Source: Octopus vulgaris (taxonomy: Eukaryota). Taken from it: a DNA stretch of 64,000 nucleotides. Both the position numbers and the translations under genes were made by a program. The stretch lies in assembly GCA_951406725.2 (NCBI GenBank), contig OX597843.1:19468001-19532000 (forward strand). Reading direction: 5' to 3'. The notes under the pieces are model-generated. The model was not told the origin of the DNA and made no database searches. It saw nothing but the letters and a program-made list of their open reading frames with translations. Below, piece by piece: positions 5,849-57,345 of this stretch (position 1 is its first letter; each line of letters begins with the position of its first letter).

Positions 5849-5920
5849 AACATTGGTGCATAATAAGATCGAGAAAGTCGACCGTGGAATCTTTCAAGGC
5901 CTTAACAATTTACAGCAATT
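5849..5920 (+). CDS. aGPCR exon 1 (first in window): [27 protein letters not shown]
   Basis: ttacag|...|gtaagt; 72 nt, phase 2-2; one 24-aa typical LRR. Confidence 0.9.
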
Positions 5921-56900: not shown

Positions 56901-57345
56901 CAATTAATCAGTACGAATGACAAAGAAACATCTTATATATTTTGGTAGCGAAATCTTTGGGTAATATACAAAGGTATCACCTAAAAGCTTTTCCGGAACG
57001 ACATAACTAAAATGTATCTAAATCTAATCCAACATGTACATATAACATTATTAACGACAATTCACGTGTATTTGCAGCAAATGTTGCAGGTCCGAAATGC
57101 AGACATTTCAACGTTGCAAATATTGAATTAGGAATAGGGAGCAAAAGAATTCTAGAAGATATGAACGCCAGAATAAGATATGCGACAGAATTAATGCAAA
57201 GGAACTAAAAGCCATCCGTTATAGACACGTTTAACGATATAGACAAGTTTAGCAATATAATATCTTATATAGTTTTCTCATTGTGTTTCCAGGTTCAAGT
57301 TCTGTTAATGAAATAATGGACAAAGCAACAGAAACAAACATATAA
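5849..57345 (+). CDS. Adhesion GPCR, 5'-partial, 22 exons: LRR-LRRCT-Ly6/uPAR-like-SEA-like-HRM-GAIN/GPS-7TM; one apparent frameshift in exon 14
   Basis: All exons have AG/GT boundaries and phases chain through the model except exon 14 (158 nt where 159 is needed). Recognisable motifs: LRR, HRM ([14 protein letters not shown]), GPS (CVYW...W...GC...[12 protein letters not shown]) and aGPCR 7TM ([34 protein letters not shown]). Confidence 0.93.
6576..6647 (+). CDS. aGPCR exon 2: [27 protein letters not shown]
   Basis: tgcag|...|gtaagt; 72 nt, phase 2-2. Confidence 0.93.
8186..8257 (+). CDS. aGPCR exon 3: [26 protein letters not shown]
   Basis: ttcag|...|gtaagc; 72 nt, phase 2-2. Confidence 0.92.
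9485..9717. mobile_element. Tc1/mariner-type MITE
   Basis: Imperfect TIRs of about 30 bp (cagggtagggcaaaagtcacccgacagtaa / ttactgttaggtgacttttgaccaaccttg), TA at the left flank. Confidence 0.65.
9746..10490 (-). mobile_element. Non-autonomous Helitron-like fragment (3' end seen, extent approximate)
   Basis: Minus-strand hairpin ccgggtgaaaccggg followed by CTGG-T; same layout as the element at 25631. Confidence 0.45.
10725..11498 (-). mobile_element. Dong/R4-type (RLE) non-LTR retrotransposon, 5'-truncated copy 1
   Basis: CCHC knuckle (ICG...HIISSC), [19 protein letters not shown]; flanked by (TTA)n-type repeats. Confidence 0.9.
11664..12487 (-). mobile_element. Degenerate RLE-type LINE 3' fragment; its 3' UTR recurs at about 12840-13100
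   Basis: Remnant [19 protein letters not shown]; lies between (TTA)n arrays; 3' UTR sequence duplicated nearby. Confidence 0.6.
13743..13900 (+). CDS. aGPCR exon 4: LRR C-terminal cap [14 protein letters not shown]...GTC...SQC
   Basis: ttacag|...|gttagt; phase 2-1; CxC...C...C LRRCT pattern. Confidence 0.88.
14560..15010 (+). mobile_element. Degenerate RTE-like LINE 3' remnant
   Basis: Broken frames with AAEMGFLR and GRPRRDG-type C-terminal motifs. Confidence 0.5.
15984..16075 (+). CDS. aGPCR exon 5: N-half of Ly6/uPAR-like domain [23 protein letters not shown]
   Basis: ctgtag|...|gtaaac; phase 1-0; LxCxxC start typical of LU domains. Confidence 0.85.
17436..17530. repeat. 24-bp tandem repeat (cttaccacacagccactcctaygc) x4, resembling a SINE 5' end
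   Basis: Direct tandem copies; the reverse complement looks like a tRNA-derived SINE head (tggctgtgtggtaag). Confidence 0.75.
17730..17913 (+). CDS. aGPCR exon 6: C-half of Ly6/uPAR-like domain PVC...KSC...[11 protein letters not shown]
   Basis: ttacag|...|gtaagt; phase 0-1; ends in the CCxxxxCN signature. Confidence 0.88.
18430..18610 (+). mobile_element. Old Dong/R4-like remnant
   Basis: [19 protein letters not shown]...KCRI aligns with [20 protein letters not shown]...NCRI of the younger copies in this window. Confidence 0.6.
19709..19791 (+). CDS. aGPCR exon 7: start of SEA-like region [27 protein letters not shown]
   Basis: ccatag|...|gtgagt; phase 1-0; open frame. Confidence 0.8.
20071..20469. 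mobile_element. Element with perfect 49-bp terminal inverted repeats and an internal hammerhead motif, next to (TA)n
   Basis: 20071-20119 is the exact reverse complement of 20421-20469. Confidence 0.85.
20252..20324 (-). ncRNA. Minimal type-I hammerhead ribozyme, intact core
   Basis: ATAGCG-CTGATGA-stem II-GAAAC-ACCGT-GTT-CGCTAT; 6-bp stem I. Confidence 0.8.
21300..21581 (-). mobile_element. RLE-type LINE 3' fragment (second family)
   Basis: [28 protein letters not shown]...[12 protein letters not shown], abutting (TTA)n. Confidence 0.8.
22529..22581 (+). CDS. aGPCR exon 8: [18 protein letters not shown] (SEA-like)
   Basis: tttcag|...|gtaagc; phase 0-2 fits both neighbours. Confidence 0.8.
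22829..22994. repeat. Foldback inverted repeat, arms about 74 bp, 18-nt loop
   Basis: 22829-22902 is an imperfect reverse complement of 22921-22994. Confidence 0.9.
23316..23418 (-). ncRNA. Degenerate hammerhead motif (CTGAATA core)
   Basis: TAAC-CTGAATA-tgactata...tatagcca-GAAAC-GCAC-GTA-GTTA; core G8 changed to U. Confidence 0.6.
24663..24820 (+). CDS. aGPCR exon 9: [12 protein letters not shown]...HMKLIDE (SEA-like C-part)
   Basis: ttacag|...|gtaagt; phase 2-1. Confidence 0.83.
25631..26747 (-). mobile_element. Non-autonomous Helitron
   Basis: Minus strand starts A|TC followed by a (TGTC)n tract, and ends in hairpin gacccg-gcaacga-cgggtc plus CTAG|T. Confidence 0.7.
26840..27153. repeat. 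Near-perfect AT-rich foldback, arms about 150 bp, 12-nt loop
   Basis: 26840-26990 mirrors 27003-27153; related arm sequence at about 23170 and 54198. Confidence 0.92.
27680..29480 (+). mobile_element. Degenerate RTE-clade LINE (RT plus C-terminal C2H2-like fingers)
   Basis: [61 protein letters not shown]; multiple stops and frameshifts. Confidence 0.92.
29575..29658 (-). ncRNA. Minimal type-I hammerhead, intact core, mismatched stem I
   Basis: TCGG-CTGACGA-GTACGAG...CTCGTAC-GAAAC-AATT-GTA-CAGA. Confidence 0.72.
30201..30284 (+). ncRNA. Minimal type-I hammerhead ribozyme, intact; predicted cleavage after 30280
   Basis: TCGG-CTGACGA-GTACGAG...CTCGTAC-GAAAC-AATT-GTA-CCGG; perfect 7-bp base of stem II; palindromic stem III ACAATTGT. 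Confidence 0.87.
30701..30786 (-). ncRNA. Minimal type-I hammerhead, intact core
   Basis: TGCAG-CTGAGGA-long stem II-GAAAC-GGTC-GTA-CTGCG. Confidence 0.78.
31926..32040 (+). CDS. aGPCR exon 10: hormone-receptor motif (HRM) N-part VCDES...[23 protein letters not shown]
   Basis: tttcag|...|gttcgt; phase 1-2; HRM consensus WPxTxxGxxAxxPC. Confidence 0.92.
32295..32675 (+). mobile_element. Two tandem tRNA-derived SINE copies
   Basis: gagctggcagaatcgttacc head and gagttcaaat B-box-like motif; conserved ggtcgactttgcctttcatcctttcggggtcgataaa-type core. Confidence 0.8.
33442..33611 (+). CDS. aGPCR exon 11: HRM C-part ...[11 protein letters not shown] and start of GAIN
   Basis: tttcag|...|gtaagc; phase 2-1; GxWxxPDxSxC motif. 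Confidence 0.92.
34194..34570 (+). mobile_element. tRNA-derived SINE plus a partial second copy
   Basis: Same head and core as the copy at 43407. Confidence 0.82.
34948..35179 (+). CDS. aGPCR exon 12: GAIN subdomain A helices
   Basis: ttacag|...|gtaata; phase 1-2; ends [24 protein letters not shown]. Confidence 0.9.
35472..35643 (+). CDS. aGPCR exon 13: GAIN ([12 protein letters not shown]...[10 protein letters not shown])
   Basis: tcacag|...|gtacta; phase 2-0. Confidence 0.88.
35862..36057. mobile_element. Mariner-like MITE remnant
   Basis: Imperfect TIRs (gagaaaaagttccttggttgtaggg / cccaaagccaaggacttttcag); TA flanks. Confidence 0.5.
36555..36654 (+). ncRNA. Hammerhead motif, same family as 30701, cleavage triplet changed to ATA
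   Basis: TGCAG-CTGAAGA-stem II-GAAAC-GGGC-ATA-CTGCA. Confidence 0.65.
37229..37386 (+). CDS. aGPCR exon 14: GAIN ([10 protein letters not shown]...[14 protein letters not shown]) with a 1-nt deletion at T-run 37354-37358
   Basis: caccag|...|gtatgg; 158 nt between two phase-0 junctions. Adding one T restores the GAIN-like [14 protein letters not shown]. Confidence 0.87.
38147..38361. repeat. Inverted repeat with 60-bp arms around a CA-rich microsatellite
   Basis: 38147-38206 mirrors 38302-38361. Confidence 0.88.
39050..39500 (+). mobile_element. Tc1/mariner-superfamily transposase remnant
   Basis: RPYV...[10 protein letters not shown], a WPPNSPD-like motif caught in a short tandem duplication, and SCARFRSCL. 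Confidence 0.7.
40195..40323 (+). CDS. aGPCR exon 15: [14 protein letters not shown]...[10 protein letters not shown]
   Basis: ttacag|...|gtaata; phase 0-0; strong GAIN-B motif. Confidence 0.93.
40721..40870 (+). CDS. aGPCR exon 16: GPS motif CVYW...WSPIGC...[13 protein letters not shown]
   Basis: tttcag|...|gttggt; phase 0-0; GPS Cys/Trp pattern. Confidence 0.95.
41678..41793 (+). CDS. aGPCR exon 17: TM1 ([19 protein letters not shown])
   Basis: ttgtag|...|gtaagt; phase 0-2. Confidence 0.92.
42115..42772. repeat. (CTT)n tract of about 650 bp with an internal higher-order duplication
   Basis: Nearly pure pyrimidine strand; variant block cttcgacttcttcttctcctt occurs twice. Confidence 0.97.
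43407..43640 (+). mobile_element. tRNA-derived SINE, near full length (related copies on minus at about 8750-9110 and 60205-60410; partial copies at about 40010 and 46690)
   Basis: ggcggcgagctggcagagtggttagc head, gagttcaaat, conserved core. Confidence 0.85.
44102..44205 (+). ncRNA. Degenerate hammerhead (CCGAGGA core) just after a possible Penelope-like ORF-end remnant
   Basis: TCGC-CCGAGGA-aacacaa...ttgcgtc-GAAAC-AATT-GTA-GCGA; upstream AKFKPR resembles a PLE C-terminus. Confidence 0.62.
44336..44469. repeat. 18-bp tandem repeat (gattttaagatatttatt) about 7 copies
   Basis: Direct tandem copies. Confidence 0.95.
44598..44718 (+). CDS. aGPCR exon 18: TM2 ([21 protein letters not shown]...ACK)
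   Basis: tttcag|...|gtaagc; phase 2-0. Confidence 0.93.
44905..46596 (-). mobile_element. Dong/R4-type LINE, 5'-truncated copy 2 (RT YMDD through RLE)
   Basis: [28 protein letters not shown]...HIISSC, NRPDIVV; (TTA)n on both sides. Confidence 0.95.
47222..48085 (-). mobile_element. Dong/R4-type LINE copy 3 with an internal deletion
   Basis: Highly similar to copy 2; flanked by (TTA)n and (TTC)n. Confidence 0.93.
48301..48442 (+). CDS. aGPCR exon 19: TM3 to TM4 start ([25 protein letters not shown]...AWG)
   Basis: ttgtag|...|gtatgt; phase 0-1. Confidence 0.95.
50290..50362 (+). CDS. aGPCR exon 20: TM4/ECL2 ([24 protein letters not shown])
   Basis: tatcag|...|gtaagt; phase 1-2. Confidence 0.92.
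51840..53110 (-). mobile_element. Degenerate RTE-like LINE (second family)
   Basis: [44 protein letters not shown]; frameshifted. Confidence 0.92.
55475..55863 (+). CDS. aGPCR exon 21: TM5-TM7 and helix 8
   Basis: ttgtag|...|gtaagt; phase 2-1; CWLS, FLAPV...[27 protein letters not shown]. Confidence 0.96.
57293..57345 (+). CDS. aGPCR terminal exon [16 protein letters not shown]
   Basis: Pyrimidine tract ttgtgtttccag, phase-1 fit, TAA stop, downstream AATAAA signals. Confidence 0.75.

Follow-up and report, generated by a model that had tools for sequence, protein, structure and literature searches.

A leucine-rich-repeat and LU-bearing adhesion GPCR of Octopus vulgaris, its mollusc relatives and predicted secreted ectodomain-only offshoots

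The vertebrate adhesion G-protein-coupled receptor (GPCR) ADGRG6 (GPR126) has a SEA-HRM-GAIN stalk, and a stalk of the same layout, with a SEA-type domain, is present in the octopus receptor gene described here, which carries leucine-rich repeats (LRR) and an LU domain where ADGRG6 carries CUB and PTX domains. The gene lies in a 64,000-nucleotide stretch of repeat-rich Octopus vulgaris DNA (contig OX597843.1, positions 19,468,001 to 19,532,000; G000:C30:19468001-19532000), hereafter termed the window. We consider it rather probable that it encodes an ADGRG-type receptor, distributed across molluscs and expanded in octopus, whose ectodomain would bind a partner and whose LU domain would be a fixed binding module and not a tethered toxin. 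LU-bearing adhesion GPCRs have been reported from molluscs, arthropods and echinoderms (PMC13719153), and the starfish receptors are described in PMC9410279 and PMC11595613. In the accessible portions of these three papers, LyAr2, LyAp2 and XP_033635539.1 are GPS-7TM (seven-transmembrane) receptors whose ectodomain includes a single LU domain, as in the octopus gene. LyAr2, a 'G2-like' receptor of 1113 amino acids, has its Lynx2/LYPD6-like LU domain at 224–305, near the position of the abalone LU domain (~243–329). Compared by description only, the LU receptors of starfish, molluscs and arthropods are not described in the available portions of these papers as having a SEA/HRM stalk, an octopus expansion or secreted offshoots, although the legend of Fig. 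2B(2) in PMC13719153 lists LRR and GPS and the layout of the window gene may be drawn there. The original prediction had allowed that an already described family with this architecture would remove its novelty; the receptor design is indeed old and partly published, and the headline novelty falls.

In octopus, the described relatives are the class B group 3 receptors of Ritschard et al. (2019; PMC6408891), which include O. bimaculoides A0A0L8GYR2 and A0A0L8FLR8 and share LRR, GPS, 7TM and tandem clusters with the window gene. The accessible text of that paper names LRR and Death domains only, and neither LU nor SEA, whereas its table holds an unremarked SSF57302 match on a relative (136–215, E 5.7e-6). 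It treats 21–22 sequences over three species, compared with at least 36 loci found here in one genome, and its 7TM-based data set could not include ectodomain-only genes. What is new here is the set of offshoots that lack GAIN and 7TM and are predicted to be secreted, together with a predicted non-cleaving pair of receptors with tyrosine at the GPS and the presence of LU peptides in a published skin-mucus proteome, one of which maps to a single offshoot locus.

The gene was rebuilt by hand from open reading frames and splice sites as 22 exons on the forward strand at 5849–57345, in agreement with the original prediction, with AG acceptors at all exons and a GT start in 21 of 21 introns (Table 1). 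The predicted identity as an adhesion GPCR and the domain order, LRR, 12-cysteine LU, SEA, HRM, GAIN/GPS and 7TM, were likewise upheld: in the translations of 18 exons, Pfam matched in turn LRR_8, HRM (E 8e-4), GAIN (E 0.04), GPS (E 6e-14) and 7tm_2 (E 2e-12, exon 21), and the closest solved relatives of the GAIN-7TM part, over 449–956, are ADGRG2 (E 5e-60) and ADGRG6 (E 8e-58). The 7TM part is of class B2, and a GAIN domain with its GPS stands before TM1. The O. sinensis protein P0004 has seven hydrophobic segments in its 7TM part, with 7tm_2 at E 3e-37, and a Pfam GAIN match (E 4e-4) below the cut-off. Nine more intact 72-nt LRR exons were found upstream (G000:C30:19445311-19465963), with an assembly gap beyond, so that the gene model is 5'-incomplete; no signal/LRRNT exon was found within 80 kb upstream of the gene.

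Exons 5 and 6 encode the predicted LQCQTC...CCFGTLCN module with 12 cysteines, placed between the LRRCT exon and the SEA/HRM/GAIN stalk. By sequence, this module is an LU domain of the LYPD1/6 type: it has the LxCxxC start, the CCxxxxCN end and the core disulfide cysteines in register, and over 18 octopus rows ten of its cysteines are invariant and two nearly invariant. A profile of seven divergent mollusc LU+SEA stretches matched human LYPD1/Lynx2 (E 3.9e-8), LYPD6 (E 1e-4), the 18-row octopus profile (E 5.6e-42) and, weakly, the SEA domains of ADGRF1 and MUC1 (E 0.08–0.5); in the LYPD1 alignment, each of the 12 cysteines is in register. The SSF57302 model matched in the group 3 table is one that we take to be snake-toxin-like. 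A three-finger fold is likely on the basis of the sequence profiles and of the structural neighbours in the Atlas, where the model of P0004 133–218 has LU/uPAR-type neighbours with TM-scores up to 0.83. Several results weigh against this assignment. All of these neighbours lie below the Atlas bar for naming a family, the octopus-only profile reaches LYPD1 at E 2.7 only, and the Pfam LU-clan models matched none of 11 octopus proteins at E≤1 and neither of the two LU exons. When we modelled LU+SEA with AlphaFold, confidence was low (mean pLDDT, the predicted local distance difference test, 64.7), and Foldseek with this weak model found nothing at E≤0.001; the matches listed were weak ferredoxin-like rows and included no three-finger structure. 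The three-finger fold that had been proposed is favoured by the Atlas neighbours but not by AlphaFold and Foldseek. As side observations, the paralogues P0007 and P0008 have two or three tandem LU domains, and the profile also matched a sea-cucumber protein, P0084, with four LU repeats and Thr-rich spacers.

The likeness to LYPD1 raises the alternative that the LU domain works in the manner of Lynx2 or LYPD6, modulating a nicotinic-type receptor, a channel or a co-receptor in cis or in trans. The original prediction had likewise allowed for engagement of a receptor or channel. The best sequence match is indeed LYPD1/Lynx2, followed by LYPD6 (6ZSS, 6IB6 and 6GBI in the PDB for the two proteins), with the same 12-cysteine register, but the LYPD1 match consists mostly of cysteines. 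NxI is the LRP6-binding motif of LYPD6; counted from the cysteine in the LYPD1 alignment, it is not in register in P0004. LYPD1 and LYPD6 are small glycosylphosphatidylinositol (GPI)-anchored proteins, whereas the octopus LU domain is internal to a receptor ectodomain and, judging from the domain order between LRRCT and SEA, would stand several domains above the membrane. The enrichment of group 3 genes in the axial nerve cord, suckers and skin of O. bimaculoides (PMC6408891) and the Lynx2-like role proposed for LyAr2 by the starfish authors (PMC11595613) would suit such a function, although an earlier paper from the same group called the LyAr2–Lynx2 grouping irrelevant (PMC9410279; these papers as far as accessible). 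Nothing supports an action on nicotinic receptors or channels, an idea that comes only from the LYPD1 likeness, and we regard this alternative as quite improbable.

A fixed binding module agrees with the conservation of the domain. The mean identity of LU to P0004 is 61% (11 of 11 paralogues), compared with 65% for 7TM, 55% for GAIN and 45% for SEA (9, 10 and 9 of the 11 paralogues, respectively, having enough cover); LU is thus not hypervariable but about as conserved as 7TM, in keeping with a constant part in binding or structure. The adjoining SEA-type domain has a ferredoxin-like strand/helix order in a low-confidence model, and Pfam SEA matched the abalone (E 5.5e-5) and argonaut (E 0.013) relatives, both below the curated cut-off. 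An Atlas feature search with the abalone ectodomain returned generic LRR clusters only, under 0.9.

The LU exons were predicted to be spliced into the receptor transcript, and the evidence agrees. In run X5, exons 5 and 6 are joined at GT..AG in one 604-nt contig, and in two contigs exon 5 is preceded by the final 13 bases of exon 4; X5 is an RNA run by guess, none of the runs containing the sequence being recorded as RNA. Database proteins from three Octopus species contain LU, GPS and 7TM in a single chain, and in a paralogue the boundary between exons 5 and 6 is covered by a skin-mucus peptide, VTSCPEAEPVCR. The exon 5–6 joint was not seen in the other three of the four runs examined, and the exon 6–7 joint lies outside the compared stretch. 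Within exon 6, the spliced contig and the window disagree at six positions, and two of the three listed differences are those of a sister copy; the contig hence speaks for the gene type and is no proof that the window copy is expressed.

At position −2 of the GPS, the window copy and its sister (two loci) have Tyr-Leu↓Thr, compared with His-Leu↓Thr in 45 other loci. The His-Leu↓Thr/Ser triad, which is not universal among adhesion GPCRs, is thus absent from the window copy, in which TSFALL follows the GPS. Tyrosine also occupies this position in O. sinensis P0004 and is therefore not decay. According to the part of PMC13197933 available, histidine at −2 is required and its mutation abolishes cleavage, and the tyrosine pair is consequently predicted not to self-cleave. 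By analogy with the vertebrate ADGRG receptors, most paralogues would self-cleave at HL↓T and signal through TSFALL as a tethered agonist, while the window copy and its sister would stay uncleaved. In the proposed mechanism, the LRR-LU-SEA ectodomain would bind a protein partner on the matrix or on a neighbouring cell, and the binding signal would pass through the GAIN domain to the 7TM.

The exons had been described as phase-compatible, which holds for 20 of the 21 junctions; the exception is exon 14 (37229–37386), of 158 nt where 159 are needed. A T-run near 37353 has five T in the window copy versus six in the sister at G000:C30:18.53 Mb, 1 Mb away, and in the assembled sequence the reading frame meets a stop where exon 15 begins, whereas P0004 reads through at this site. 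A single homopolymer slip is a usual long-read error, and the missing base is probably an assembly error and not a real lesion. The exons of the sister are 94–100% identical to those of the window gene, with 29 synonymous and 57 non-synonymous differences (pS 0.048, pN/pS 0.53), and neither a stop nor a lost splice dinucleotide was seen in 30 exons, where about seven (~4 stops and ~3 splice) would be expected since the split from the sister if the copy were neutral, by a rough estimate. Both the pN/pS ratio and the clean exons were counted for intactness, and the window copy seems fairly probably intact in the animal. The less probable, though still appreciable, alternative is a recently dead duplicate, with the sister alone active. 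Such a copy might show the frameshift as assembled, the same pN/pS of 0.53 and the 47 private amino-acid changes counted in the window copy versus eight in the sister (polarised with P0004), which tell against intactness, and no contig is tied to the window copy's own exon-6 variants. Yet the only lesion is in a homopolymer, the 30 exons are otherwise clean, and the private count sums two branches if the duplication is older than the split from O. sinensis. Inside exon 14, the window copy has variants at 37274, 37276, 37311 and 37327.

Across the genome, at least 65 matches to LU exon 6, at least 54 to the GPS exon and at least 67 to the 7TM exon were found. For 43 of the 65 LU exons, a same-strand GPS exon follows at a distance of no more than 60 kb, versus one of 65 in each of two orientation controls, and a 7TM exon follows the GPS for 39 of them, at 36 distinct GPS exons; the octopus genome holds at least 36 LU adhesion-GPCR loci. 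The proposal of a lineage-specific chimera does not stand, since the search for the same architecture in molluscs found it in gastropods, a bivalve and the argonaut: a hidden Markov model scan gave 44 matches, and the ten that were checked included adhesion GPCRs of abalone, whelk, zebra mussel and argonaut with LRR, LU and SEA-type domains, as well as a scallop fragment and two non-receptor LU proteins. The seven-mollusc profile found five proteins among 5371 candidates, all from molluscs and either already known or from more abalones. In a midpoint-rooted GAIN-7TM tree, built from 24 rows without a non-LU outgroup and excluding P0016 as it lacks the GPS motif, the octopod copies form one clade with support 100/96 beside one further sequence, with the gastropods and the bivalve on the other side, and P0004 and P0003 fall with P0031 and P0060 in the octopod clade that holds the listed group 3 proteins. 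The tree and the shared layout fit one ancestral mollusc gene expanded in octopods, a gene to whose type the starfish LU receptors probably also belong; the orphan group 3 receptors of octopus thereby gain a full ectodomain and a tie to a single older gene. Two further family members were noted: a full-length minus-strand paralogue tail to tail with the window gene (G000:C30:19535001-19595000; L056–L058, L048), in which LU exon matches number three and SEA occurs a second time, and an O. bimaculoides member (P0060, P0109) with a C-terminal Death domain after the 7TM.

The more useful lead is the group of ectodomain-only genes. P0009 (O. sinensis) and P0011, P0012, P0020 and P0023 (O. vulgaris) end in the receptor family's last exon with no GPS, and the terminal exon of the window gene is homologous to this last exon, the alignment to one such gene (L037) having 143 identical bases of 185. 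At C30:18.43 Mb, the terminal exon lies 1.4 kb after a second SEA exon and continues its frame. This SEA2-terminal exon block is full-length at 18 loci among 40 scored matches, and lies within 45 kb downstream in 12 of the 22 GPS-less LU exons. The C14 locus maps gap-free as LRR-LRRCT-LU-SEA-HRM-SEA2-terminal exon. In the full-length gene adjoining the window, the 700 bases at the start of the block and the 290 at its end match about 34 kb apart, which marks the GAIN-7TM stretch deleted from the ectodomain-only block. No C-terminal hydrophobic segment was seen in P0009, P0012, P0020 or P0023, and a related C31 locus is headed by a signal/LRRNT exon, from which secretion of the products is predicted. 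A literature search, which covered few subscription journals, gave no paper on the ectodomain-only genes or on the tyrosine pair. Dispersed copies of the block (G000: C14:18299-83450, C7:635494-650228, C1:216638168-216684368 and C31:1512616-1539251) stand tail to tail with a 7TM exon that is 85–95% like that of the window gene; those on C14 and C7 lie near contig starts, suggesting that a duplicated block spread to chromosome ends.

The peptide-spectrum match table of a skin-mucus study (PMC10138644), as far as available, contains at least two LU peptides (2 and 1 spectra), at least one SEA peptide (1) and LRR peptides (4 and 1), and 'adhesion GPCR G6' is listed in mucus in the accessible part of PMC11431876. 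Three loci share the exon end of the exon 5/6 peptide, and the lysine-preceded form that this peptide requires occurs at one of them, the ectodomain-only gene on C14, although alleles of other animals may differ from the assembly; the other peptides cannot tell secreted from shed protein, and none of three SEA2-terminal junction peptides was found among the matches listed from the mucus table. An unlikely alternative, though a less remote one than the Lynx-like action, is a mucosal recognition repertoire, in which variable LRR arrays would read microbes or foreign surfaces, the receptors would signal and the secreted forms would be soluble recognisers. It would account for an LRR number that differs widely between paralogues, for duplication that is both tandem and dispersed, for the peptides in mucus and for expression in gill and skin of C. 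minor (PMC6408891), but the same paper, in its accessible part, reports no single sites under positive selection, and the mucus peptides are possibly shed receptor fragments or cell debris. Under the preferred reading of a partner-binding receptor, the products of the ectodomain-only genes would be soluble versions of the receptor's binding surface, and at skin and mucus they would present its partner or compete for it. We propose more tentatively, at somewhat short of an even chance, a paired system in which dozens of receptors are matched by about 18 soluble twins that arose through a single GAIN-7TM deletion and act as mucus decoys or recognition proteins, with the non-cleaving pair adding a third mode. 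For a receptor family to have secreted counterparts of its own would be an uncommon means of tuning adhesion-GPCR signalling at skin and suckers. Through the offshoots and the non-cleaving pair, the question of the ligand becomes open to test, a genome-encoded soluble ectodomain being a ready probe for the ligand.

Table 1. Features of the receptor gene and its ectodomain-only paralogues (positions in the window unless a contig is given)
Feature	Position	Strand	Basis or remark
Three 72-nt LRR exons	5849-5920, 6576-6647, 8186-8257	+	Pfam LRR_8; phase 2-2, AG/GT
LRRCT cap exon, 4 Cys	13743..13900	+	Translation; last 13 bases precede exon 5 in two X5 contigs
LU first half, Cys 1-4 (exon 5)	15984..16075	+	Translation, contig joint, LYPD1 alignment
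LU second half, Cys 5-12, CCxxxxCN (exon 6)	17730..17913	+	Translation; 65 genome matches
SEA-type domain, three exons	19709-19791, 22529-22581, 24663-24820	+	Model strand/helix order; Pfam SEA in relatives; profile match
HRM domain, two exons	31926-32040, 33442-33611	+	Pfam HRM E 8e-4
GAIN exons	34948-35179, 35472-35643, 37229-37386, 40195-40323, 40721-40870	+	Pfam GAIN, GPS; solved relatives ADGRG2, ADGRG6
Exon-14 T-run, 1 base shorter than in sister copy	37352..37357	+	Alignment to sister
GPS with Tyr for catalytic His, then Stachel-type sequence	40832..40870	+	Comparison of loci
7TM exons	41678-41793, 44598-44718, 48301-48442, 50290-50362, 55475-55863	+	Pfam 7tm_2
Terminal exon with stop	57293..57345	+	Homologous to last exon of ectodomain-only genes
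Ectodomain-only paralogues	G000:C30:18420423-18436490 (L036, L037); G000:C14:11149-58000 (L050-L054)		GAIN and 7TM lacking

The remaining observations concern the introns. A long tandem repeat of the GTGTGAAG type with strong GC skew occupies 1–5240 of the window, in the intron before exon 1, and decayed pieces of non-long-terminal-repeat retrotransposons lie in introns at 27647–29100 (+), 45282–46727 (−) and 51877–53016 (−), with Pfam RVT_1 on four of six scanned frames. An intron stretch at ~23230–24150 is very AT-rich (24% GC bin), contains short hydrophobic minus-strand frames in the invertebrate mitochondrial code, and is a possible, unconfirmed candidate for a mitochondrial insertion.

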